From: an uncultured archaeon
GTDB taxonomy: Archaea; Iainarchaeota; Iainarchaeia; Iainarchaeales; JAAZKV01
Length of the DNA stretch: 44,635 bases
Reading direction: 5' to 3'
Assembly: GCA_964550725.1 (NCBI GenBank)
Contig: CAZKAC010000033.1
Coordinates: 1-44,635, forward strand
The notes beneath the pieces were generated by a model that had not been told where the DNA came from, made no database searches, and was given only the letters and a program-made list of their open reading frames with translations. The position numbers were made by a program, and so were the translations under genes. Shown here one piece after another: positions 922 to 40,393 of this stretch (position 1 is its first letter; every line of letters starts with the position of its first letter).

Positions 922-2835
922 TTAAATTAATCTAATTGAATCTAACAATCGTATTGATGTTGTGTTTATTTGAAATTTGTGTGCTAGGTATTTAGAAAAT
1001 TCAATACTTCTTGCGGGTGCTCCGTGATTTACTAAAATTCTTTTTGGTTTTGGTTTTAGTGATCCGACATAATTCACTAGTTGGTTAAAATCTGAGTGTC
1101 CTGAAAATCCATCTAAATTTTCAATTTTCATTTTAACATCAAGTCTTCGTGTTTTTCCTTTATCAGTTATTGGTAATGTTTTTAGCCCCTGTTGCAAATG
1201 TCTCCCCAAAGTTCCTTCAGCCATATATCCTACAATGAGTAAAGTGTTTGCTTGGTTTTCAGCCATTTTATAAAAATAATCTAGTACTGGCCCCCCTTGC
1301 ATCATTCCACTAGTGGTAACTATTATTGCTCCTCCATCTTTTAATATTTTGTCTCTATCTTCACGAGTAGCAGTATTAAATGCTGGACAATCAAAAGGAC
1401 TGTCATTATTTAAAATTCTTCTTTCAAGAGTTTGTCGCATATATTCAGGATACGCTGTATGTATTGCACTTGCTTCCCTAACCATTCCATCAAAATAAAT
1501 TTTATTTTTTTCACCCAATAATCCTTGTTTGTAAAAATTTTCCAAAACAAGTGCTAATTCTTGACCTCTTCCAACTCCAAAAACAGGAACTAATATGTTT
1601 CCACCAAACTGAGTGGTTTCTTGAATTATTTCTAAAAATTTTTGTTCTGTTTCTGTTCTTGATGTTTGGAGTGCATCTTTTGCACCATAAGTACTTTCAA
1701 TAATCATTGTTTCTATTCGTGGATACTTAATGTCAATATTATCAAATAATCTAGTAAATCCATATTTTATATCTCCTGTGTAAACAAGATTGTGTGCACC
1801 TTCTGCAATATTTAAGTGTACTGATGCTGAACCTAAAATGTGCGCTGCATTATGAAAAGTCATTCTAATGTCTGGCGCAATATCAGTTACTTCTCTATAA
1901 TCTCTAGGAATTGTATGAAGCAAAGCATTCTTTACATCTGCTTCAGTATATAATGGTTCAATATCATTTGAAATTGAAACATTGATATAATCAAATTGTA
2001 ACAGAGTCATTAAATCTCTTGTAGGCATTGTTGAATAAATTGGTCCATCAAAACCATATCGATACAAATAAGGAATCATTCCAGAGTGATCAGAATGTGC
2101 ATGTGTAACAATCAACGCATCAAGTTCACTTAATGGAAAATTTAATGAATCAATATAAGGAAGAACGTCGTTTCCAGATTGATTCAATCCCGCATCCATC
2201 AATAATTTTGTTTGTTCAGTATCCACATAAACACTACTTCTTCCAACTTCTCTAAACCCACCAAGAGCAGTTATTCTTGCCCAATTGTGTTGTGAAGTGC
2301 TTTTTGGAGAATAAATTTCTTCTCCAACTTTTAATAAGAATTTTTTTCTTTCATCAGCATTTTTATATAAATAACTTCTAATTTTTCTAAGAATTTCTGA
2401 ATTTGATGTGGGCGCACGCAAAATGTTTGGAGTCCAACCTGTTTGAAGCATTATTCTCTTTGATAATTCTCCACCCTTTCCAATAACAAGTCCTTTTTTT
2501 ACCGCTTCAATTACAACTTCAGAAAATGCATCATTAAAATAAATTTCTTTTACTTCAGCATCTTCAGGAATCATTGCGAGAATTTCTTTCTTTGCTTGTT
2601 CTTTTCCTGCAAATAAACTTTTGTCAGTTCTAATATTAACTCTTTTTTTTAATTCAAAAGCGGTTTTTGAAACATAATTATCTGGTCCAAAAAATTCTCC
2701 AGGATTTTTTGTATAAATTACTACTTCAGGTCCTTCAATTTCTACTTTTGTCACTCCGCACTTATCAGGAATTGTTTTTTTTATTATTTCTTTTATTTGT
2801 TTTAACATATCTATTTCTTGTACCACAATCATCAC
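922..2835 (-). CDS. fttA: Archaeal CPSF1 / FttA: KH-domain beta-CASP metallo-beta-lactamase ribonuclease (transcription termination factor)
   Basis: 637 aa. N-terminal KH-like GxxG (LVIGKGGELSKRI), metallo-beta-lactamase motif HAHSDHSG, and a beta-CASP C-terminal part (DGFSGHSD, VNHG). The first codon of the track ORF is GTG followed by ATG at 2832, so the exact start is uncertain by a few codons. Confidence 0.93.
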   Translation of the reverse strand: MMIVVQEIDMLKQIKEIIKKTIPDKCGVTKVEIEGPEVVIYTKNPGEFFGPDNYVSKTAFELKKRVNIRTDKSLFAGKEQAKKEILAMIPEDAEVKEIYFNDAFSEVVIEAVKKGLVIGKGGELSKRIMLQTGWTPNILRAPTSNSEILRKIRSYLYKNADERKKFLLKVGEEIYSPKSTSQHNWARITALGGFREVGRSSVYVDTEQTKLLMDAGLNQSGNDVLPYIDSLNFPLSELDALIVTHAHSDHSGMIPYLYRYGFDGPIYSTMPTRDLMTLLQFDYINVSISNDIEPLYTEADVKNALLHTIPRDYREVTDIAPDIRMTFHNAAHILGSASVHLNIAEGAHNLVYTGDIKYGFTRLFDNIDIKYPRIETMIIESTYGAKDALQTSRTETEQKFLEIIQETTQFGGNILVPVFGVGRGQELALVLENFYKQGLLGEKNKIYFDGMVREASAIHTAYPEYMRQTLERRILNNDSPFDCPAFNTATREDRDKILKDGGAIIVTTSGMMQGGPVLDYFYKMAENQANTLLIVGYMAEGTLGRHLQQGLKTLPITDKGKTRRLDVKMKIENLDGFSGHSDFNQLVNYVGSLKPKPKRILVNHGAPARSIEFSKYLAHKFQINTTSIRLLDSIRLI

Positions 2836-2953
2836 TTTTTTATATTTTATTTTTTTAATTTAACTACTTTTTAGTTTTTTTATTTGTTAATTAAAATCTT
2901 TTAAATAAGGCAATTAACTACAATTAATTTATTTTTTAAAAGGGGATTTTTTT

Positions 2954-3682
2954 TTAATTGAATTTTATTTTTGCAATTATTTTATCAATTTGAGAACGAT
3001 TAATTTCTCGATAACCATTTTTGTCAATTACTACAACGGTTACGCTTTCTCCACCACTATAAATATCTCTGTGTTTTGCTGCACTAACAGCTTTTACTGC
3101 CAATGCTATTGCTTCATCTTCATTCATTTCTTTTTTGTAAGCATTGTCAAGTGTTGTCATTGCAAATGTTGTTCCTGAACCAGTAATAGCATAATCTTTT
3201 TTTGTTGTCACACACCCAAAAGGAGTTAATTCAAACAATTCAGGCTTATTATTTATTCCCCCAAGAATTGGTTGAAAAACAAAAGGATAATACCTATTAC
3301 CATTCAATACATTTGATAATAATGATGCCATTGCATTAGGAGTCATTTTTGTATCTCTTTCAATTTCATACAAATTTGCTTGTGCACGCATAAATCTAAT
3401 CAATGCTAACGAATCACCTACTGCACCTGCAGTCGTAACCCCAATATTACTAGTAATTTTGTATACTTTGGGCATGTCTTTCTCAGCAATATTTCCTAGC
3501 GTTGCTCTTTGATCAGCAGCTAGTATAACTCCATCTTTGTAAATTATTCCCACAGTAGTAGTTCCTGTCTTTTTATCTTCTAATTCAAGTTTATGTTTTA
3601 CTGGACCTATTGATGCATTAAACATAGTCCTTTCACTAATCAGACTTATTGGTAATCCTTCAACTTCTTTAAAATGATTCAT
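2954..3682 (-). CDS. psmB: Proteasome subunit beta (with propeptide)
   Basis: A ~40-aa propeptide ends in G|TTTVGIIYKDGVILAADQRAT (Ntn-hydrolase Thr1). ITGSGTTFA motif present. Length 242 aa. Confidence 0.93.
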   Translation of the reverse strand: MNHFKEVEGLPISLISERTMFNASIGPVKHKLELEDKKTGTTTVGIIYKDGVILAADQRATLGNIAEKDMPKVYKITSNIGVTTAGAVGDSLALIRFMRAQANLYEIERDTKMTPNAMASLLSNVLNGNRYYPFVFQPILGGINNKPELFELTPFGCVTTKKDYAITGSGTTFAMTTLDNAYKKEMNEDEAIALAVKAVSAAKHRDIYSGGESVTVVVIDKNGYREINRSQIDKIIAKIKFN

Positions 3683-5946: not shown

Positions 5947-6055
5947 TCACATCACCAATTATAATAATAATAGTAATCTTTATTTAACTTTTCACAAAAA
6001 TAAGAAAATTTCAACAAAACAACATTTATAAGCATCAATAAGTATTGTTTTTAGT

Positions 6056-6706
6056 ATGTCTGGTAAACAAGGAGTCTTAGCTAATATTTCAGATTTCAAA
6101 AAAAATTTTCCAAACGCTCCAAAAAATGGTGAAAGAATAAATGCTTTAGAACAATATTTTGCAATAGGTGGAGTAATACGTGCACATAAATCAGATAAAG
6201 ATTGGCCAAAAATTACATACCCAAGTTATTTAGTTATTCAAAGAAAACTTTCTGATTTAAAAAATAGTAAACAAATTTATTCCCAAAGATATGCAGCGTG
6301 GAAAAAAAGTTATAATCGCGCATTAAATTACCATAAAAATCATCAAATAAAAAAACTAAAAGAACCATTATATTGGAAACATATGACTCGCATGATGATT
6401 GATTCAGATTATAGAAATGATGCTAATAAAGTTAGTTTACCTGCACATCTTGTATCAGATCCACGATGGAAACCAATGGTAAAAATGTTTGTTACTGATA
6501 TAGAATATAGAAAACAATTAACTGAAACTGTTACCACCTCAATAGTATATAAAAAAAATAAAAAAGTCGCTAAATATGCTGATGAATTAAAAGAATTTAG
6601 AATGAGTGCAAGCAATAAACAAATGGAAGATTTACAAAAAAAACTTGATATCATCGAAAAAACTGAGACTGCTCTTAAAGAATTACAAAAATGGGTAAAA
6701 GAATAA
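6056..6706 (+). CDS. Hypothetical Lys-rich protein with a probable C-terminal coiled coil
   Basis: 216-aa ORF in an AT-rich background. No motif recognised. The C-terminal QMEDLQKKLDIIEKTETALKELQKWVKE is heptad-like. Confidence 0.5.
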   Translation: MSGKQGVLANISDFKKNFPNAPKNGERINALEQYFAIGGVIRAHKSDKDWPKITYPSYLVIQRKLSDLKNSKQIYSQRYAAWKKSYNRALNYHKNHQIKKLKEPLYWKHMTRMMIDSDYRNDANKVSLPAHLVSDPRWKPMVKMFVTDIEYRKQLTETVTTSIVYKKNKKVAKYADELKEFRMSASNKQMEDLQKKLDIIEKTETALKELQKWVKE

Positions 6707-10607: not shown

Positions 10608-13600
10608 ATGGATTTTCAAGAAATTAAAAACACTGTTATATCAAAAATAAAAGGAATTTATTTTTATTTCGAAGATAAATGGTATTCAACTTTAGATAAA
10701 TTAGACCAACATGTCCCAATTTACAAAGTTATTGATCCAATAGATAAAATAATTCCAAGTTACATTCTTTTTTTATTATTAATTTTATTTTCTTTAATTT
10801 TAACAGGGTATTTTATTTCATTTAGCAATACTTATGATATAAAAATTATAACTCTTGATTCAAAAACAAATCTTGGAATTAGCAATGTGAATGTTTATGG
10901 TTCAATAAATGAAGCTAATTTTGATGAATATAGTGATTCTCATGGAGTATTAGAATTTCCTGTCATGGGCCCCAAAATGAATTTTTTTAATGTATTTATT
11001 AATTTATTTTTTCCAACCGATGTTGAATTTGAATTTTTAGTATCTGCAAAAAAAGATGGTTATATAACTCTAACAAAAGAAAATTTTATTTTAACAAATG
11101 AAATGCTTGAAAATCAATTATTTCTATCCCCAATTTCAGAACAAGTTGATTCTAAAAAAATAAATATTAGATTAGTTGATTCAGTTTCTAAAAACCCAAT
11201 AAAAGATTCAACTGCTTACATAAAATTTAAATGTGATAATGACCCTGCTTTTCAAATAAAAACCATTAATGACTCAGATGATGGTTTTTTAGATGGTAAA
11301 TTTGTATTAAATGCAGATGGATGTGTTTTTAGAATCAATGAGATTGGCGCAAATAATTATGAAACTATTTCTAACTCTTTTCTTGTTTCGCAAGATAGAG
11401 AAATAAGCTTGATTAGATTGAATAATACTAATAAAGGAAGTGTAAAACTGCACGCAGTTGAATTAAATTCATCCCCCAAGAAAAACATTTCAGGAATTTC
11501 AATAAAATTAAATAAAGAACAAAACGATTCATTAACTACTATAAAACAGGGAATAACTGATAATTCAGGAGTTTTAACGTTAACTGATCTTTCACCCGGA
11601 GAATATTTGATAACCACTATAAGTTTAGATGAAAATTCGCCATATATTCCAATCACTCCAAGTGATAATATTACTATTAATGTTATAGCCGGAAATACTC
11701 CAACAGAAGAAACAATTTATTTAACAAAACTAAACCCAAACGCATTAAGAAAAATTTTTGTTAAAATTATTGATTCTAATTCATCTCCTATTCCAAATTC
11801 AAAAATTTCAATTTATTGGTTAAGAAATTCTCAAAACAAACTAATTGCAGATAGTCAAGCGGGGGCAAGTCCAAAATCTACTGATTTAAATGGATTAGTC
11901 ACAATGACTGGATTTACTGCAAATAACGCAGGACAACTAATAGGAGTTGTATATAAACAAGGTTATTTACATAACATATTTGACCCACAATTGTTTGACT
12001 TAAATAGTGGACCTCAAACAATTACTCTCACAAAAGCAAATGAAACAAATTCAGGAAAAGCACAAATTAATGTTTTAGATAATGCAACTGCAAATAGTCA
12101 ATACCCAAAAAAGTTAAGAGGAGCTAATACTACTCTTTATTTAAAATTGCCAAACATGTTACTCGCAAACCAACCAAAAACTATCGAAAGACTTATTATT
12201 GGACAAGATATAACTAATAATTTAGGAGAATCTAAATTCAATAATTTAATTCCGGGAACATATTCTGCAAGTGCTAATTATAAAGAATCAGATTCTGGAA
12301 TTTCTACAAACAAAATCCTTGATGTAAATCAATTAATAATTTTTGATTTAAATATTGATACAAATATTAGTTTTTTAAGAATAAATTTGTTCAATAAAAA
12401 AACTAATGAACAAATAACTAATTCGAATGCAAAAATAAAAATATATACTTTAACAAATCCATCAAATTTAATTAAAACACTTTCTGAAACCATAAGTATA
12501 ACTAATAATCAATTTGAAAGTTTAACATATGATAGTGAAATACGACTCGAAATGATTGCATCAGCACCGGGTTTTGTTTCAACAACAATACAAAACATAA
12601 CTGATTTAGCAACAGGGCCAAATGATTTTAATATTTATTTATATCCTGTTGAAGATTTAGATAAAAATGTAAATATATTTTTTGATACAATATATACTAA
12701 TCTATCTGATATAGAACATGGTTCAAAACCAAATTCTTTTGTTTGGAATGCTAATCAAGATTACTTCGCAAAATTTGATGTTATAATTCATAAAGATGAT
12801 TTTAATTATACTGACTTATTTTCGTTTGTAAGAATTAATGAATTTGGGAACATTAAAGATATTCCAATAATTTGGCCAAGATATTTTTATAACGCTTCAG
12901 ATATATTAACTCAAACTACGATTAATGCTGATTTGGAAGAAGAAAGTATAATTGCAAAATTTCCCCCACACATAGACAATTATTATTTCCCAACAAATAT
13001 TTCAACATTTAAAAATCAAGAAGATGAGGGGGTGCAAGCAATAATTAAATGGAATGGTTTTGAACAAGAATCTCTCAACCCAATGGTTTATACTTTTATT
13101 GTTAAATTTAAATTAAATGAATTTGAAGATGATGATGTTCTTGAATTTAATTACAGAGCAAAAGAAAAACATAATAATAATTCTTCTGAAACTAATTTAG
13201 AATCAACTACTTTTAAACTAGGTGATGCGATTTGTGAAGAAGTTTGTTTTACAATAAATATAAATGGAAAAAATGTTTTAATTAATGGAAATAATTATGC
13301 TAACTTAGTTGGAGAAACCCAACAACTCCAATTAAATGAAAATACTTTTTCAATAAGAGCATATAATGGAACTGATTCAACAACTACTGGAACACTTAAA
13401 GTTTATTCACACCAAGGAACTATATCTTCATTTAATAGAACTGGTTCAGGGAGTCTTAAATTTGTTTCTGAAGATGGTGAAAATGATTTAGTTTTAGCAG
13501 AAACATTATCAATTAATTCAAGAACTAATTCGCAAGCATACCAAAATAAAATTTATCCTTCTCAATTAATGGTTAGTAATTATTTTGTTGTTGAATATTT

Positions 13601-16064
13601 TGTAAACAATACTCCTTATCGTGTCTTTGTTGATACAAGGGTACCTGGAAAAGAACTAAAATTACAAAGAAAAAATAATTTTATTGCAGGATTACAAGAC
13701 CAAGATTACTATAATTTTGTAATCCCAAAATATGGTGATGAAATAGTAAATTTAATTGAAGATACAATAAAAATTTCAGTATATAAAAATTGTGATGAAG
13801 AAAAAAATCCAATATTTGTAGGAACAAATGTTTTATCAGCATCAATTGATTCAACTATTGGAAATAATTATTTTTTTACACAAATTCCAGGAATATATAA
13901 TATTAATAGCGATTGCATAGTTGTTGAAGGCGAGGCTTTAGGTTATCAACCACTTAATGAAACTATTTATGCATCTATTGGAGGATCATTAGATTTGGGG
14001 CTTACTTGTTTAGATATTAGTAGTCCAAAAGGCGATAAAGACATAACTCTTAATTGGAACGATACTACTAATGTAAAAATTTTTAATGGATGTAATGAAA
14101 GTGCATCAGTTTATATCGAAACAGGATTAGTTTGTAATAATTGCAACGAATCAAATAAAATTATTTTAGATGCTGGAGATTCAACTGAATTTGAAATTAC
14201 GGGAATTAATAAAACATATTCTTCAGAAAAAAGATTTTCAGATATTTTAGGATTCTTTCCAGTTTATTTAAAAGCTAAAAAAACATCAGCATCAAGATAT
14301 AAAGAATATACTGTTGCTGATAAATTAAATATCCATTTAGTTAATCCTAATGAATGTTTCGCAATAAGTAAAGATTTGTTTGATTTTATAGAAGATTCTT
14401 CTCCAAAAGACTTTAATATTACTAACAATTGTCAATACGTTGAATTCGAAAATTATTATATTCCAAAAGCAACTCTTAACTCATTTGGTGCAGAAATTAA
14501 AAGCCCTTATGAAATTGATATTGATTCAATTGATTTTGAATGGAAACTTTCTGAAATAGCAGGAACTTATGAAACGACTTATGTTTCTTCTGAGTCTGAA
14601 AAATTTTTATGGCCAACATCAAAAAATCTAATAGAATATCCATCAACACCAGTTGAAGGAAAAGACTATAATTTATATGAAAATTTAGAATTTGATTTAA
14701 GTTATGTTGATGGATTATTAACTAAATTTCAAATTAATTGGACAGACAGAATAGATCCTTCTAAAAGAGACACTAATGTTTTTGGAATAGCAATTGTTGG
14801 AGATATCACTATTAATTTTGAAGATGGAACAAATACAACAATAACTCCAGAATATAATTTTTCTCTCACACCAGCAGTAACTTGTTTATGTGATGGAAAT
14901 AGATCATTAGATACCGCTGGAAATCCTGCTCCATGTTATAAATCAATTAATCTAGATGGGGTATTAATTTCTAATGAATGTGAAATTGGACAACAAAATG
15001 AGGTTGGTAGACAAGATTATTTTAACCCAAACAATCCCTACTATTATGGATTAGTTTATGTAAACATTCCAAGAGAAAATCATAAAAAACCAGTTTCGGT
15101 TACTTTTAACGCATATGGCCCTGCTAATCCTGATGAATTAACAAACATTACAATTATCCCAAAAGCAAAAATAACTACTACTTCCCCTATAATAAATATG
15201 ACTGATGATAGCGAAATAATAGAATTTAATTTGGGTTCTTTTACAATATACCCTATAGAAGGAGTAACCTATATTTTAAGAAATATTAGTTATGGACAAA
15301 CTGCACTGGGCACAAGTTTGCATGAAAAATATTGTATTGCAAAAAAACTTGGACAAGCATGGTATTCTAATAATGACGCAAAAATTTATTGGTTTGAAAA
15401 TGGAATAATTAACCTAGAAAGTAATGAACAAATTTGCACCCAGACTAATAATAGTTTAAATATTTTAGAAACACCATCAACATTAATAAACTATAATCAA
15501 GCACCTAATGAAATAAAACAACAAATGCAATTATATCTAGAAACTAAAAATATTGCAGGAGCATGGGGAACTCCTAACCAATTATTAACTAAAGATGGAA
15601 TAACTAGCATGGACGATCCCACTGATTTCACTAATTATATTGGAGGGTGTGAATACTTAGTTCCACAAAATATTATTATAAATGATGACTCTTGTGAAGA
15701 CGGAACAATAAATGTTATTTGCGAAAATGATTTAACAACAAATGAACTTTCTTGCAAAATTGACGATATATTATCATCAAATATTTTTTTCAGTATTAAC
15801 TATTTAGGCCCTAGAAATCCATCAGTTAATTTAGAAATTGAACAAAATTCAATTAAAGCTAATAAACAAGATAATACAAGTTCCCTTAGTGATGGAGCAG
15901 TTATAATTTGGGCAGAGGGAAAATATTTAAAAGCAAGGTTTATAGGGGATGAAATTAATGAATATAATAATGAACAATTAAAATATATTATTGAAAATAC
16001 GTTTATCAATCAAACTCAATACGGAATAATAAATGTTATTGATTATGTGGATGGAAGAAATTAA
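10608..16064 (+). CDS. Giant (1818 aa) signal-anchored extracellular protein with multiple carboxypeptidase-regulatory-like/Ig-like repeats and a Cys-rich C-terminal two-thirds
   Basis: A ~50-aa cytoplasmic N-terminus (FYFEDKWYSTLDKLD..PIYKVIDPIDK) is followed by one TM helix (ILFLLLILFSLILTGYFISF). At least 6 modules show the pattern hhV.D..t..Pl.n..V.l.......TD..G...h..L.PG.Y (e.g. ITDNSGVLTLTDLSPGEYLITT, TNNLGESKFNNLIPGTYSASA). There are many N-x-S/T sequons and paired Cys (CNESASVYIETGLVCNNCNES, CLCDGNRSLDTAGNPAPC). Confidence 0.85.
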   Translation: MDFQEIKNTVISKIKGIYFYFEDKWYSTLDKLDQHVPIYKVIDPIDKIIPSYILFLLLILFSLILTGYFISFSNTYDIKIITLDSKTNLGISNVNVYGSINEANFDEYSDSHGVLEFPVMGPKMNFFNVFINLFFPTDVEFEFLVSAKKDGYITLTKENFILTNEMLENQLFLSPISEQVDSKKINIRLVDSVSKNPIKDSTAYIKFKCDNDPAFQIKTINDSDDGFLDGKFVLNADGCVFRINEIGANNYETISNSFLVSQDREISLIRLNNTNKGSVKLHAVELNSSPKKNISGISIKLNKEQNDSLTTIKQGITDNSGVLTLTDLSPGEYLITTISLDENSPYIPITPSDNITINVIAGNTPTEETIYLTKLNPNALRKIFVKIIDSNSSPIPNSKISIYWLRNSQNKLIADSQAGASPKSTDLNGLVTMTGFTANNAGQLIGVVYKQGYLHNIFDPQLFDLNSGPQTITLTKANETNSGKAQINVLDNATANSQYPKKLRGANTTLYLKLPNMLLANQPKTIERLIIGQDITNNLGESKFNNLIPGTYSASANYKESDSGISTNKILDVNQLIIFDLNIDTNISFLRINLFNKKTNEQITNSNAKIKIYTLTNPSNLIKTLSETISITNNQFESLTYDSEIRLEMIASAPGFVSTTIQNITDLATGPNDFNIYLYPVEDLDKNVNIFFDTIYTNLSDIEHGSKPNSFVWNANQDYFAKFDVIIHKDDFNYTDLFSFVRINEFGNIKDIPIIWPRYFYNASDILTQTTINADLEEESIIAKFPPHIDNYYFPTNISTFKNQEDEGVQAIIKWNGFEQESLNPMVYTFIVKFKLNEFEDDDVLEFNYRAKEKHNNNSSETNLESTTFKLGDAICEEVCFTININGKNVLINGNNYANLVGETQQLQLNENTFSIRAYNGTDSTTTGTLKVYSHQGTISSFNRTGSGSLKFVSEDGENDLVLAETLSINSRTNSQAYQNKIYPSQLMVSNYFVVEYFVNNTPYRVFVDTRVPGKELKLQRKNNFIAGLQDQDYYNFVIPKYGDEIVNLIEDTIKISVYKNCDEEKNPIFVGTNVLSASIDSTIGNNYFFTQIPGIYNINSDCIVVEGEALGYQPLNETIYASIGGSLDLGLTCLDISSPKGDKDITLNWNDTTNVKIFNGCNESASVYIETGLVCNNCNESNKIILDAGDSTEFEITGINKTYSSEKRFSDILGFFPVYLKAKKTSASRYKEYTVADKLNIHLVNPNECFAISKDLFDFIEDSSPKDFNITNNCQYVEFENYYIPKATLNSFGAEIKSPYEIDIDSIDFEWKLSEIAGTYETTYVSSESEKFLWPTSKNLIEYPSTPVEGKDYNLYENLEFDLSYVDGLLTKFQINWTDRIDPSKRDTNVFGIAIVGDITINFEDGTNTTITPEYNFSLTPAVTCLCDGNRSLDTAGNPAPCYKSINLDGVLISNECEIGQQNEVGRQDYFNPNNPYYYGLVYVNIPRENHKKPVSVTFNAYGPANPDELTNITIIPKAKITTTSPIINMTDDSEIIEFNLGSFTIYPIEGVTYILRNISYGQTALGTSLHEKYCIAKKLGQAWYSNNDAKIYWFENGIINLESNEQICTQTNNSLNILETPSTLINYNQAPNEIKQQMQLYLETKNIAGAWGTPNQLLTKDGITSMDDPTDFTNYIGGCEYLVPQNIIINDDSCEDGTINVICENDLTTNELSCKIDDILSSNIFFSINYLGPRNPSVNLEIEQNSIKANKQDNTSSLSDGAVIIWAEGKYLKARFIGDEINEYNNEQLKYIIENTFINQTQYGIINVIDYVDGRN

Positions 16065-34453: not shown

Positions 34454-35119
34454 TTAAGAAACTAAAGATTTTTCAAACCGTTCCCCAACATGTTTATAAC
34501 CCATTGAAGAAGCTAAAGAACGATACATCATAATCATTCTTTTTTGTATACTCTCTTTTTCTTTATAATATTCATTATTTTTTAATATTCCTGTTCCCAA
34601 AGAAGGATTCTTAAAATAAATCAAACTCTCAGGCAAATCCATAATAACCTTCTTATAACCCTGTCTTTTAGCATGTTCTTCAATAATAGTTAATAAATAA
34701 TTAGGCACAGGCATTCCAACAATACCTTCAAGTTGTTTAATTGATTTAATCTTACCCTTAGTCCCCTGAATAGCTTTAATATGCACAATATTTTTTGCAA
34801 ACCCTATTTTTATTTCAAAATCCCTCTGCCCAAGAGGCCCATGAGGATCATCTCTTTTTTGACTAGAATAAATAGTAACTGCTAATGGAGCTTCCCAAGA
34901 ACTAGTAGTCAAATCAATACGATAATTCCTTTTTGAACTTAAATTTATTACATCAAAAGATTCAATAAATTTCTTACCAAATTTAAGATAAGAATAATAA
35001 CTGTTTCTTCCCTCAGGTCTTCGTTGAATATCTCCCAATAAACGTTTAGTTTTTCTTTTTTTTAACTTTGATTCATTCAATCTAGAAAAAAAATTTCTTA
35101 CTTTTGAATATAATTTCAT
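34454..35119 (-). CDS. Hypothetical 221-aa protein. Its N-terminal ~90 aa are paralogous to the N-terminus of the 35194..35601 ORF.
   Basis: Basic N-terminus (SKLKKRKTKR). Shared blocks with the neighbour: PEG, YGKKFI, KR.Y..D...SS.EAPLA...YSS. The C-terminal half (VHIKAIQGTKG...LLTIIEEHAKRQGYKKVIM) is faintly GNAT-like but unverified. Confidence 0.55.
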   Translation of the reverse strand: MKLYSKVRNFFSRLNESKLKKRKTKRLLGDIQRRPEGRNSYYSYLKFGKKFIESFDVINLSSKRNYRIDLTTSSWEAPLAVTIYSSQKRDDPHGPLGQRDFEIKIGFAKNIVHIKAIQGTKGKIKSIKQLEGIVGMPVPNYLLTIIEEHAKRQGYKKVIMDLPESLIYFKNPSLGTGILKNNEYYKEKESIQKRMIMMYRSLASSMGYKHVGERFEKSLVS

Positions 35120-35193
35120 AATAAATTATATTTTTAAACATATTAAATAAGTATCAGTTTAAATTAAATCAAAATTTTTAACAATTATTTATC

Positions 35194-35341
35194 TCACCAA
35201 GGCACCTTTTTAAGTTTCATTTTATATGCTGCAAAATTAGTCGCCATATGAGCAAACACAGTTACTATTAAAACAATTAAAACAACTTCTAATTCAGGAA
35301 AACGAATCAACATACTTAATAAAAATCCTCCAACCACAAAT
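35194..35341 (-). repeat. Copy B of a ~148-bp segmental duplication (3' end of carS)
   Basis: Hand alignment with 36228..36375 gives 19 mismatches in 147 nt (about 87% identity) and no indels. The similarity stops at the stop codon on one side and at the F-V-V-G-G codons on the other. Confidence 0.9.
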
Positions 35342-35601
35342 CTTGAACTAGAATAAACAGCTATTGCGAGCGGAGCTTCATATGAACTAACTCCAATATC
35401 AACAATATAACTTCGTTTTCCTTTAATTGGGATTGGATTAAAATTGTGGATAAACTTTTTTCCATAATTTAAATAGTCCGAATATTTTTGACCCTCTGGA
35501 TTGAATTTTATTGCACTTAAAAACATTTTTGTTCTATTTCTTCTTTTTTTTCTTTCTCTAATTCCTGAAAAAAAACCAGAAAGTTTCATATTCAGTTTCA
35601 T
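35194..35601 (-). CDS. Chimeric ORF: a ~87-aa N-terminal domain paralogous to the 34454..35119 product, fused in frame to a copy of the last 48 aa (TM segments) of CDP-archaeol synthase
   Basis: The N-part aligns at roughly 50% identity with the neighbour. The C-part FVVGGFLLSMLIRFPELEVVLIVLIVTVFAHMATNFAAYKMKLKKVPW differs at 2 of 48 residues from the CarS C-terminus. It could be a functional fusion or a rearrangement relic. Confidence 0.5.
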   Translation of the reverse strand: MKLNMKLSGFFSGIRERKKRRNRTKMFLSAIKFNPEGQKYSDYLNYGKKFIHNFNPIPIKGKRSYIVDIGVSSYEAPLAIAVYSSSRFVVGGFLLSMLIRFPELEVVLIVLIVTVFAHMATNFAAYKMKLKKVPW

Positions 35602-35642
35602 AAATAAATCATAGACTAATTGTTATTAAATAATAAAGCACA

Positions 35643-36227
35643 TCACAAAAGTTCAGAAAAATCATCTATATTTGTAAATCTTTTGGTACCATAATACCAA
35701 ATTAACAAAATTAATCCACTCATTATATACCATGTAAATATGTGAATGAGTTCTGCATCAAAACCAGCTTTAGCACTTAACAAAACAAGCATTAATCTTG
35801 GGATGTTAAAAAATAACAAAATAATTGTTCCTACCAAAAGCAATACTATTTTTTTCTTAATTTCTGGTTTTTTTAGAGAAAAAATTACTGATGCGAGGAT
35901 GCTAGCACTAACTAAACCTGTGCAGGAGTTAGTTACAATAAATTTATTCCCATTCAAAAAAATAACATTATCCAAAACGAATAACCCTGGTCCGACAAGA
36001 AGGTTGGTAGATGTAGTAGCTGAAATATATGCAAGCCATGAATTAAGCATTGTAAGGTCTAATAAGTTGATGATTGTTGATAGAATAGTAAAAATAACGA
36101 AGAATTTTAATAAAAAAAGCCCTATTTTAATATTATTTTTATTGTTTTCAAATGGTTTAGGATTGTTTGTTTTTTTCTTATTTTTTTTTGAACTTGAGTT
36201 TATTGTTTTTTTTGCTTTTTTAACCAT
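35643..36227 (-). CDS. Exosortase/archaeosortase-family integral membrane protein (short form)
   Basis: Lys-rich N-terminus, then about 5 TM helices. It carries the family's candidate Cys-Arg-His triad in order and spacing: IVTNSCTGLVSASIL, FFNIPRLMLVLL, AELIHIFTWYIMSG. The ATG directly abuts the carS stop (TAAATG). Confidence 0.6.
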   Translation of the reverse strand: MVKKAKKTINSSSKKNKKKTNNPKPFENNKNNIKIGLFLLKFFVIFTILSTIINLLDLTMLNSWLAYISATTSTNLLVGPGLFVLDNVIFLNGNKFIVTNSCTGLVSASILASVIFSLKKPEIKKKIVLLLVGTIILLFFNIPRLMLVLLSAKAGFDAELIHIFTWYIMSGLILLIWYYGTKRFTNIDDFSELL

Positions 36228-36375
36228 TTACCATGGCACCTTTTTTAATTTCATTTTGTATGCTGCAAAATTGGTCGCCATGTGTGCAAACACCGTCACG
36301 ATTAAAATAATTACAACTACCTCTAATTCCGGAAAACGAATCAACATACTTAATAAAAATCCCCCCACTACAAAA
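36228..36375 (-). repeat. Copy A of the ~148-bp segmental duplication (authentic 3' end of carS)
   Basis: See copy B (35194..35341). Confidence 0.9.
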
Positions 36376-36746
36376 TCTAATTGGTCGGCAAGTAACCACA
36401 ATTCTCCACTCTCAAAACCAAGTCTTCGTTTAAAAAAACTTTCAACCAAATCCCCAAACAACGCACCAATCGAAAGTAAAACAATTAACTCAAAATAATT
36501 TGGAATTAATTTAAAAATTCCTGGAAAAATTGTTGCAAAAAAACTTCCCGCAATCAACCCCCCCAATACTCCGCTAAAAAAACCAACCCATGTTTTACCT
36601 TTTCCAAATATTCTTTGTTGTCCGATTTTTTTTCCAAAATCTATTGGAAATTTTCCATGAAAAATAATAGGTGTTGCGTTAGCAAAATACATAGGGATAG
36701 CGTAAAAAACTACAATCAATATTGTTTCTAAACCCAAATCAATCAT
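36228..36746 (-). CDS. carS: CDP-archaeol synthase (CDP-2,3-bis-O-geranylgeranyl-sn-glycerol synthase, DUF46 family)
   Basis: Motifs YFANATP, GKGKTWVGF, GDLVESFFKRRLG and ADQLDFVVGG match the CarS family. The ATG at 36746 is preceded by GTGAT (agtgattaatATG). The track start 36755 is that GTG. Confidence 0.85.
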   Translation of the reverse strand: MIDLGLETILIVVFYAIPMYFANATPIIFHGKFPIDFGKKIGQQRIFGKGKTWVGFFSGVLGGLIAGSFFATIFPGIFKLIPNYFELIVLLSIGALFGDLVESFFKRRLGFESGELWLLADQLDFVVGGFLLSMLIRFPELEVVVIILIVTVFAHMATNFAAYKMKLKKVPW

Positions 36747-36757
36747 ATTAATCACTA

Positions 36758-37456
36758 TTACAAAAATAATAATCCCATTATAAGCGCAAATAATGCTCCT
36801 GATAAACTCCCTAATAGATTTACTTGTGTGTTATTTAATAGCTTTTGCCTCTCAAAAATTGCTCCAAAAATAGAGTCAACTGTTGTTCCCACCAGTCCAG
36901 AACAAATTATGACAACCGAAAGTAAAGGATTTAGATAAATTGAAAAATAAATTAAGCCAATTATTGTTCCACCAAATAATGCAGCTAATTCGCCAAGTAA
37001 TGTTACTCCTCCATCTACTCCTCTTTTACATTTTTTAAGAGTAGTTATCAATATCGGGTCTGATTTTGAATAAAACCCAATTTCTGATGACAATGTATCT
37101 GCCAGGGCTGCTGAAATGGCTCCAAAAAAACCAAGTTCAAATAGTAAAGCTTTTTCGGGAAATATCGGAATAAGAAAGAGCATTAGTAATGCGGGGGAAG
37201 AGTTTCCAATTACATTTTTTATTCCTCTGCGTTCATGTTTTTTTACTGGAAAATTACTGGCAATTTGTCCAACAACAAAAAATGCTACAAATGCAAACAA
37301 ATTCAAAACAGGGTTTGGCCCCCAAGTTATTGATGCAATTCCAACAGCATCAGCAATTAAGATTCCTTCTAAGTCAAGTAACTTTTTTTTGTACGAATAG
37401 ATTGAAAATATTCCTAAGAAAAGGAAAACTATTGCTAATTCAATTTCAGATATCAT
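36758..37456 (-). CDS. DUF92 / TMEM19 / VTE6-like integral membrane protein (putative isoprenoid-phosphate kinase family)
   Basis: Polytopic membrane protein with NVIGNS, AISAALADTLSSEIG and KRGVDGGVTLLGELAALFGG. These match my recollection of DUF92 (A.ADT.ASE.G ... G..GGVS..G). The start abuts the S3Ae stop and the stop lies 2 nt from the carS track start. Confidence 0.6.
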   Translation of the reverse strand: MISEIELAIVFLFLGIFSIYSYKKKLLDLEGILIADAVGIASITWGPNPVLNLFAFVAFFVVGQIASNFPVKKHERRGIKNVIGNSSPALLMLFLIPIFPEKALLFELGFFGAISAALADTLSSEIGFYSKSDPILITTLKKCKRGVDGGVTLLGELAALFGGTIIGLIYFSIYLNPLLSVVIICSGLVGTTVDSIFGAIFERQKLLNNTQVNLLGSLSGALFALIMGLLFL

Positions 37457-38578: not shown

Positions 38579-38818
38579 TCAATTACAATTGATATCTAAC
38601 CTTTCCCCCCAATTATGGCGAAGAAAAGAATACTAAAATTCTAAATTAATTTGTTGAAAAGAAGGTTTATAAAGCTAATTAAAACATTTTTTCAAGCAAT
38701 AAACCCATATTATAAAAAAAAGTAATTTAAAAAATTGTATATCTAAAAAAAAACTATTTTTATACACAAAATTATTTTCTGAACATACTCTTATAATTCA
38801 TTCAAATTTAAATATAAT

Positions 38819-40393
38819 ATGGTTCTTACAATAAAAAATCTTTCAATTACACTTGGGACTAAGGAAATATTTGTTAATGAAAATATTGGAATTGCTGCAG
38901 GAAGCAAAGTTGGATTAATTGGTAGAAATGGAGTTGGAAAAACAACTTTATTGAAAGCGATTTTAAAACAAATACCATATAATGGAACAATTGATTTCCA
39001 TGGAAAAGCTGCTTATTTTTCACAACACATTGGATTAGATAAAACAAAAACTGTGCGTGAAACGATTAATGAAAGTACACAAATACACCACCAAAATGAT
39101 TTCGAAAAAGAAATTATTAAAATAGAAAAACTCCTCGCCAACCCCGAAACTTATAACAATAATGACTATGCAACAAAATTATCAGAAAAATATGTTGAGT
39201 TACAATCAAAAATAAATCAACAAAACATAACCCATTCAACAAGTAAAATCAAATCAATTTTACAACTACTTGAGGTTAAAGAATCTTGGTTAGATCAAAA
39301 AGTAGAAACTTTATCAACAGGCCAAAGAGCAATTATCGCATTAGCTCAAATCTTATCTTCACACGCAGAACTTTTATTATTAGATGAACCAACAAACCAC
39401 CTTGATTTTAAAAGACTAAATATTTTAGAAAAATTTTTACAAGACTTTAAAGGCACAGTAATTATGGTTACTCATGATAGATATTTTTTAGACCAAACTT
39501 GTAACACAATAATAAAAATAGAAAACGGGAAATGGATTAAATACAATAGTAATTATTCAGGATATCTAAAAACACGCGAAATGGAATTTGAAGCACAAAA
39601 AAAAGCATACTTAGTTGAACAAAAATATATTGCAGATGAAAAAGATAAAATTTCTAGAATTGGAACAAGTCCTCAAAAAGTAAAACAAGCAAAATATAGA
39701 ATAAAACATTTAGCAAAAAGAGATCAAATTCAAAAACCTGATTTAGATAAATCTAAATTTACAACAGTAATAGAATCTACTCCAATACGCGCAACAAGAG
39801 TACTAGAATTAATTAATTTAAATGTTGGTTATGTTAAACCATTAATAGAAAATATTAATTTAGAAATAGGCGCTGGTGAAAGATATGTCATAATTGGAGA
39901 AAATGGAATTGGAAAAAGTACCTTATTCAAAACTATTGAAGGAAGATTGCCTGCCCTTTCTGGAAAAGTTATTTTAAATCAAGAAACAAAACTTGGATAT
40001 GTAGATCAAGAATTACAAGACTTAACAAATCACGCAACACTATATGATGAAATATATGCTATGACAAAAGATGTTTATAAAACTCGACAAAACTTATCTT
40101 TAGGTGGTTTTGTTGAAGAAGAAGATGTATATAAACCAATAAAATTACTTTCATTAGGAGAAAAATCAAGACTTAATCTAATAAAAGTTTTATTAAAAAA
40201 ACCAAACTTATTATTATTAGATGAACCAACAAACCATCTTGATATAGATGCTAGAGAAATAATAGAAACTGCTTTTATGAATTATGAAGGAGCTATATTG
40301 GCTGTTTCACACGACAGATATTTCATAAATAAAATTGCTCAAAGAATAATAAAAATTGAAGATAAAAAAATAAAAGAAATGAAAAAAAAATAA
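38819..40393 (+). CDS. ABC-F-type soluble twin-ABC ATPase (no transmembrane domain)
   Basis: Two ABC cassettes. The first has GRNGVGKTT / LSTGQRA / LLLDEPTNHLD; the second has GENGIGKST / LSLGEKSRL / LLLDEPTNHLD. A helical insert (arm) sits in cassette 1. A ~70-aa basic inter-domain linker (YLKTREMEFEAQKKAYLVEQKYI...KVKQAKYRIKHLAKR) resembles the ABCF PtIM. There is no N-terminal FeS domain, so this is not ABCE1. Confidence 0.8.
   Translation: MVLTIKNLSITLGTKEIFVNENIGIAAGSKVGLIGRNGVGKTTLLKAILKQIPYNGTIDFHGKAAYFSQHIGLDKTKTVRETINESTQIHHQNDFEKEIIKIEKLLANPETYNNNDYATKLSEKYVELQSKINQQNITHSTSKIKSILQLLEVKESWLDQKVETLSTGQRAIIALAQILSSHAELLLLDEPTNHLDFKRLNILEKFLQDFKGTVIMVTHDRYFLDQTCNTIIKIENGKWIKYNSNYSGYLKTREMEFEAQKKAYLVEQKYIADEKDKISRIGTSPQKVKQAKYRIKHLAKRDQIQKPDLDKSKFTTVIESTPIRATRVLELINLNVGYVKPLIENINLEIGAGERYVIIGENGIGKSTLFKTIEGRLPALSGKVILNQETKLGYVDQELQDLTNHATLYDEIYAMTKDVYKTRQNLSLGGFVEEEDVYKPIKLLSLGEKSRLNLIKVLLKKPNLLLLDEPTNHLDIDAREIIETAFMNYEGAILAVSHDRYFINKIAQRIIKIEDKKIKEMKKK

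Follow-up and report, generated by a model that had tools for sequence, protein, structure and literature searches.

A chimeric open reading frame ending in a carS 3' fragment, in an uncultured Iainarchaeales archaeon, looks like a strain-level rearrangement scar

The DNA analysed here (the window) is a 44,635-nt stretch of contig CAZKAC010000033.1 (assembly GCA_964550725.1) from an uncultured archaeon of the Iainarchaeales. One locus in it brings carS, a gene of lipid activation, together with a gene of the archaeosortase family and a GNAT-like gene that is dimorphic; the two forms of the latter are called X and Y below. The alleles of the carS 3' end are called a and b. Its features, by position in the window, are the following.

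36758-37456, minus strand: DUF92 gene
36228-36755, minus strand: full-length carS, CDP-archaeol synthase (PF01864, 134.9 bits)
36228-36374, minus strand: 3' end of the resident carS, a allele; the other copy of the repeat
35643-36227, minus strand: archaeosortase-family gene, 194 aa, its start overlapping the carS stop
35194-35601, minus strand: chimeric ORF, 135 aa, X stub plus carS tail
35341-35601, minus strand: X 5' stub, 87 codons, with X's own start and upstream region
35194-35340, minus strand: carS 3' fragment, b allele, 48 codons plus TGA stop; the C-terminal third of the chimeric ORF
35120-35193, minus strand: 74-nt spacer from the fragment's stop to the start of Y, which moves with the b fragment and Y
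34454-35119, minus strand: gene Y, 221 aa, GNAT-like single domain of an uncharacterised family
beyond gene Y, plus strand, convergent: SecD and SecF

The resident carS matches the NCBIfam model NF003114 at 172.3 bits (cutoff 148) and the PDB structure 5GUF at E = 1.5e-25. The gene that follows it carries the TIGR04178 signature above the curated cutoff (33.3 bits against 23) and matches PF09721 at 28.3 bits against 25.7; its best subfamily-like matches, ArtE and ArtD, are both far under their own cutoffs. The chimeric ORF lies downstream of this archaeosortase-family gene, as the original prediction had it. A small archaeosortase-family gene also adjoins carS in relatives whose CarS identity goes down to about 55% (L010, L011, L013-L015 and L090), and the usual order at the locus is DUF92 - carS - sortase - SecD(-). 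Among relatives, those at 54-59% CarS identity (one of them a “Candidatus ainarchaeum” MAG) have DUF92 - carS - sortase - SecD without an X/Y gene, and the order is carS - sortase - SecD in L011, L013-L015 and L090. The closer relative L006, with a SecD 80% identical to that of the window, has a sortase gene, a single X/Y homologue and SecD. The adjacency of carS and the sortase gene possibly ties the supply of CDP-archaeol to sortase-type lipid anchoring, and may merit a separate look.

A repeat search of the window finds one direct repeat (35196-35340 and 36230-36374, 88% identity, spacing 1034 nt). In an ungapped comparison the similarity starts sharply at TTTGT (35340 and 36374) and stops at the stop codon, with both flanks dissimilar. 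The sortase gene sits within the 1034-nt unit (35341-36374) that the direct repeats bracket. The search thus recovers what had been noticed from the letters, namely that the tail of the ORF (35194-35340) repeats the last 48 codons and the stop of carS (36228-36374). An exact recount also agrees with the earlier hand count of 19 differences in 147 nt (the TAA/TGA stop included), with 15 codons differing only synonymously and two carrying conservative replacements (V/L and I/V). The dN/dS of the two 147-nt copies, proposed as a check on the original prediction, was computed by the Nei-Gojobori method over 49 codons, among them the non-homologous junction codon; the differences are almost all synonymous (dS 0.78, dN 0.052, omega 0.067). 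By our own arithmetic from the codon table, omega is about 0.03-0.04 when the junction codon is left out. Under neutrality, the probability of so few replacements between the copies is about 1e-6.

The chimeric ORF is intact and in frame. It joins X codon 87 to carS codon -48 at 35340/35341 (junction peptide VYSSSRFVVGGF), and the joined sequences have at most AGA (3 nt) of microhomology at that point. Seven assemblies that come from different samples have this same junction (the window, L001-L004, L150 and L144), and the predicted in-frame chimera of a truncated neighbour-family copy and a second carS 3' end is thereby borne out. The fusion sequence is identical in six contigs from several samples, and four JGI contigs from four samples encode the identical 135-aa protein. 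L150 spans the whole fusion ORF with one synonymous difference, and the older contig L144 covers the ORF up to 35245, ending inside the repeat. Three other older, independent contigs (L007, L008 and L009) start at window positions 35165, 35152 and 35155, inside the 74-nt spacer and 33-46 nt upstream of the Y start codon; these breaks suggest a graph branch or population heterogeneity just 3' of the repeat. A k-mer protein search recovered the fusion as one exact sequence only, and it is absent from a sister strain (strain B, below), from contig L147 and from all more distant relatives examined. The synteny comparison in relatives suggested with the original prediction therefore has a divided outcome, as the adjacency of carS and sortase is kept and the fusion is never found. 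The prediction had also named observations in related genomes that would tell against it, and close relatives go part of the way in that direction: they have the intact gene and no fusion.

The tail of the fusion is a genuine piece of CarS. In Pfam, the CarS-like profile is matched at positions 125-175 (of 175) by fusion residues 85-135, and the final 48 residues form a true CarS C-terminus that aligns to about residues 127-174 of Aeropyrum pernix CarS (5GUF), i.e. most of alpha4 plus alpha5. The A. pernix enzyme has five transmembrane helices; the ends of alpha1-alpha4, together with two cytoplasmic loops, form its CTP/Mg2+ cavity, for which alpha5 serves only as a cover (PMC9385802). Unlike CarS, the fusion has neither alpha1-alpha3 nor the two loops of the cavity, so the fragment cannot be catalytic and is no enzyme. 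Against the whole-protein model NF003114 it scores 40.1 bits where the cutoff is 148, and it is aligned at profile positions 123-172 only. The structure prediction of the fusion that had been suggested was run with AF2 and gave a mixed answer: the C-terminal helices are modelled at pLDDT 58-91, and residues 37-91 are below 50, a low value that is weak evidence since the alignment used was forced, shallow and mixed.

The N-terminal part belongs to a family of which the window holds a complete member in gene Y. Paralogy between the first ~87 residues of the fusion and the start of the 221-aa neighbour had been predicted correctly; the identity measured over 87-88 aa is 45%, somewhat under the ~50% first given. 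The family comprises 168 distant homologues of about 220 aa, aligned over approximately residues 40-218, and has no match in Pfam, NCBIfam or PDB sequence searches; an ATP-grasp hint (E = 0.042) was below the cutoff and was dropped. An AF2 model of Y from a deep alignment is a single alpha/beta domain (pLDDT 93.6, pTM 0.88), with strands at 58-119 and helices to 205. The top 50 Foldseek matches of Y in the PDB are all GNAT or p300 acetyltransferases, though the matches are weak (E ~0.02, TM 0.3-0.48). GNATs carry a CoA-binding motif between a strand and a helix. In the X/Y family, Q118-G119 is nearly invariant and lies between a strand and a helix, and presumably corresponds to that putative motif.

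The fusion keeps X residues 1-87, that is the N-terminal helices and the first three strands. It has no Q118-G119, and so does not contain the complete X/Y domain (~40-218). The original prediction saw in the fusion a soluble domain that had captured a membrane anchor, and this does not hold up, since the N-terminal part is 87 residues of a GNAT-like domain of about 220 aa, cut in the middle of the sheet. As modelled, the fusion is a broken domain joined to a broken enzyme.

The source of the X stub is seen in strain B, a sister genotype represented by contigs L140-L143 and L005 from five samples of the same sample series. A protein search with the fusion finds a 216-aa protein (P0002, on L005) that is 100% identical to the fusion's N-terminal part; L140-L143 carry a 220-aa form (P0018). 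The order in strain B is DUF92 - carS - sortase (193 aa) - intact X - SecD, with neither the fusion nor Y. From 35725 down to exactly 35341 (385 nt), window and strain B DNA agree at every position; this stretch takes in the first 87 codons of the fusion, the intergenic region ahead of them and the sortase 3' end. Past 35341, strain B has about 125 nt that are missing from the window, and near-identity resumes at about 34730. Outside 36392-34730, the two differ at about 0.1% of sites (about one per kilobase), and are therefore conspecific strains.

X and Y proteins are 46% identical over their first ~91 residues and 99% identical over the last 86. The diverged allele segment of gene Y runs from 35119 to about 34730, where its DNA is, by our own estimate from the alignment, only some 60-65% identical to X; below ~34730 the two are nearly the same. 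The N-terminal identity of X and Y (46%) is lower than that of either to the L006 orthologue (51-57%). We take X/Y to be a gene that is dimorphic within one population, its 5' half exchanged between lineages. The sortase gene has a variable stretch as well. Compared with L140-L143, its differences at 35751-36030 lie in tight patches (36030-35988, including a 3-nt indel, and 35843-35826) with identical stretches between them, and L143 is a recombinant within the gene, with the strain B pattern in the first patch and the window pattern in the second. This patchiness, together with the mixture in L143, indicates frequent recombination of short tracts, and by this pattern and the graded b tracts described below the carS - sortase - X/Y locus is demonstrably mosaic.

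The carS fragment can likewise be traced to a complete gene. The full-length carS of strain B (P0015) ends in exactly the 48 residues of the fusion, and the fragment differs from the strain B carS end (four contigs, L140-L143) at two of 147 positions (145/147 identical): a synonymous CCA/CCT and the stop, TAA/TGA. It does not differ at all (0/147) from the carS end of L147 (JGI 3300077564), sharing both the CCT codon and the TGA stop. This 32.9-kb contig has the order DUF92 - carS - 74-nt spacer - Y - SecD; at 2408-3666, the spacer and Y follow directly upon a full-length carS, and there is neither a sortase gene nor an X stub. From 35340 downwards, the window is matched by the carS end, stop, spacer and Y of L147 with 3 mismatches in 3891 nt, and L147 as a whole equals the window minus 36229-35344. 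At 36392, 36387 and 36384 it has the bases of strain B (T, T, T), where all fusion-bearing contigs that cover these sites have C; these bases speak against a simple origin of L147 by deletion from the fusion genotypes observed. No recorded contig from L147's sample carries X, the fusion or a window-type sortase gene. As a single contig, L147 could be a chimera of strain B and window sequence assembled via a 140-nt identical run, or could be a derivative by deletion between the repeats instead of a parent.

These matches show the fragment to be the native b allele of carS, a complete and functional gene in circulation within this population. Given 145/147 identity to strain B and 147/147 to L147, the synonymous differences separate two full-length carS alleles, and the 18 coding differences between the copies in the window are those of b versus a, having accrued in full-length enzymes and not in the fusion. 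The changes specific to the fragment lineage amount to at most one synonymous change (CCA to CCT) plus the stop change, and to none by comparison with L147, too few to speak for or against selection on the fusion copy. The claim that selection or repeated conversion keeps the fusion's copy intact was based on the comparison within the window, and falls away when the fragment is only 2/147 (strain B) or 0/147 (L147) from a full-length carS. The few replacements between the window copies would reflect purifying selection on two alleles of the complete enzyme.

Taken together, these comparisons make it probable that illegitimate recombination, at a locus that is mosaic and varies between strains, left the 135-aa ORF behind as a scar. 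In the proposed course of events, closely related DPANN-type archaeal strains would exchange DNA at the carS - sortase - X/Y locus, with two arrangements in circulation: carS - sortase - X - SecD (the strain B type) and carS(b allele) - 74-nt spacer - Y - SecD (the L147 type, without the sortase gene). The window would then consist of the former up to X codon 87, and of the latter from carS codon -48 on. The right side would have been resolved through ordinary homology in the shared 3' part of X/Y, and the left junction would be non-homologous, with at most AGA in common, an outcome like that of homology-facilitated illegitimate recombination (HFIR). With an in-frame join by chance, the promoter and start of X would drive 87 codons of truncated domain into the CarS tail, of which the last one and a half to two helices would be read. 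The prior for an in-frame join is one in three, and a special explanation is unneeded. We infer the parental genotypes and the direction of the event from the haplotypes, and likewise that the fusion product has no selected function. Counting against the scar, the fusion ORF is intact and in frame, has a start and an upstream region, and is near-identical across contigs; its product may be expressed and tolerated, or even useful.

HFIR has been described in Acinetobacter, Streptococcus pneumoniae, Pseudomonas stutzeri and E. coli conjugation (PMC3240628; references in PMC5361080), and has been proposed for allele displacement at polymorphic loci, where orphan fragments are left (PMC5361080). 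The window resembles such events in having one end in homology, where identity to strain B resumes (~34730), and the other end in 0-3 nt of microhomology, and in the net insertion of foreign or allelic DNA next to a leftover of the resident gene. As for the parents, the X type is present on five contigs, and carS - spacer - Y is present on the single contig L147, with the alternatives of derivative or chimera given above. The described cases are bacterial and experimentally shown, unlike the present one, which is read from the haplotypes of an uncultured archaeon; the “parents” here are also conspecific strains, so that donor and recipient are indistinguishable. There is a further likeness to Rhs/CDI toxin tips and T6SS effector-immunity arrays (PMC5361080), which also have a strain-variable gene with a conserved and a diverged part, and in which the arrival of a new allele leaves the stub of the old allele adjoining. 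In contrast to those systems, the variable part is here N-terminal and the stub is a 5' fragment with a promoter, and X/Y, with its GNAT-like fold, has no sign of a toxin, immunity or secretion function.

The resident carS end has a history of its own. Between 36392 and 36246 some 20 differences from strain B, almost all of them synonymous, form an island in a carS background that is ~99.9% identical to strain B. The GC3 of the a allele is 19/48 (0.40), against 0.153 in the neighbouring genes (p = 4e-5), and the differences in the island have an AT-to-GC bias of 11:3; the b allele, with 10/48, is typical of the background. The resident a allele looks like a tract that came in from a relative richer in GC; it thus appears to be the fusion that keeps the native sequence and the end of the resident gene that looks overwritten. 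Scans of genomes and metagenomes with CarS for a donor of the a allele returned only relatives of at most 59% identity, the best named one being the “Candidatus ainarchaeum” MAG (55%); the nearest CarS proteins have five or more residue differences in the segment, and none of them can be the donor. The island almost coincides with the repeat, a coincidence that a simple two-parent model explains only weakly. It may be that an illegitimate join is to be expected only where homology is poor, or that diverged repeats are favoured, as identical ones would delete the sortase gene.

The fusion-bearing contigs differ in their resident repeat: the window is a throughout, L004 is a with one b site, L001 is b at the first four sites, and L144 is b throughout, retaining an a-type base at 36392, just outside the repeat. 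These graded b tracts are best read as gene conversion from the fusion copy to the resident copy, bounded by the repeat; they could also be assembly noise between the two copies. L144 (JGI 3300001533) has, at 6001-6505, a 14-nt deletion corresponding to window 36375-36388; its end falls exactly on the boundary of the repeat, and the resulting frameshift splits carS into ORFs of 134 and 49 aa. This is either a real inactivating variant, a by-product of recombination or a misassembly of the repeat.

Other explanations of the ORF have to be set against this evidence. That it is an assembly artefact, in which reads of two strains or of two repeat copies were joined into a chimera, might be thought of because the samples contain several near-identical strains and because breaks in old assemblies fall within the repeat or beside it (L144 inside it, L007-L009 shortly before the Y start). 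Assembly collapse or chimerism had been named at the outset as what would undo the original prediction. Yet a junction common to seven assemblies from different samples and years is not a one-off assembly chimera, and with no more than 3 nt shared at the junction there is no k-mer path across it, so that no assembler could make the join without real reads containing it; an artefact is exceedingly improbable. A route within one genome is a more serious candidate, and is still unlikely. Here a tandem duplication of the 1034-nt unit [carS 3' - sortase - X 5'] in a strain-B-like genome would give the intermediate carS - sortase - X5'::carS3' - sortase - X, after which the second sortase gene would be deleted and the second X 5' part replaced by the Y allele; L147 would be a later product, formed when the two direct repeats recombined. 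Three points favour this route: the layout matches a tandem-duplication junction exactly, with a period of 1034 nt; each half of the fusion has strain-B-type sequence; and direct repeats are expected to delete the sortase gene between them, giving an L147-like product. Known junction ORFs of tandem or segmental duplications are alike in that a direct repeat brackets a gene and unrelated genes form an in-frame hybrid. What differs from those is that the second unit is no copy, as Y follows and there is no second sortase gene. Simple tandem duplication as the whole story is rejected on these grounds, the stub being 100% identical to strain B X and the 5' part of Y only about 60-65%. The longer route needs at least three further events, and the strain-B-type bases noted above make L147 no simple deletion derivative of the observed fusion genotypes. 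Moreover, the 74-nt spacer has no significant sortase remnant: its alignment scores with the start and end of the sortase gene, 25 and 43, are inside the range of shuffles (21.4 +/- 4.1 and 35.8 +/- 5.2), and derivation of the spacer from either end was rejected.

The original prediction amounted to a functional small membrane protein, in which a soluble module uses CarS helices as an anchor or docking element and both copies are selected or converted. In its favour, seven assemblies have the ORF intact and in frame, omega between the window copies is about 0.03-0.07, the C-terminal helices are modelled at pLDDT 58-91, and there are signs of conversion between the repeat copies. The low omega, however, is fully explained by two full-length carS alleles. 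The fusion is absent from the sister strain, L147 and all relatives, its N-terminal part is cut in mid-sheet and lacks the region of the conserved Q-G motif, and its CarS part is without alpha1-alpha3 and the active-site loops, scoring 40 against the NCBIfam CarS cutoff of 148. We consider this reading quite improbable. It is a long shot, too, that the fusion product is made and matters with CarS alpha4-alpha5 as a tether for the stub, and that the foreign-looking recoding of the a allele was favoured as keeping the repeats from recombining. If that were true, an N-terminal helical stub would be tethered next to CarS or the archaeosortase, and divergence of the repeats would itself be selected, preventing deletion of the sortase gene and the fusion.

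At a locus prone to recombination, the ORF looks like the ordinary scar of a strain-level rearrangement and not like a membrane protein newly under selection; no new kind of protein or system is revealed. For an uncultured archaeon of DPANN type with very AT-rich DNA, it is a small, clean case of illegitimate recombination and of mosaicism between strains. It also carries a caution, in that a very low dN/dS between two copies within one genome does not equal selection on both if one of the copies came from the functional gene of another lineage; here, the population context settles the matter.

Two further observations concern the contigs that bear the fusion. L144 lacks about 74 nt that are present at window 38765-38837, and at its end (1-1067) it carries a DDE_Tnp_1 transposase gene, lying upstream of sequence with 99.98% identity to window 42820-38838. 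At 11935-15063, L001 encodes a DNA polymerase II large subunit (DP2) with an intein that has a LAGLIDADG domain in Pfam.
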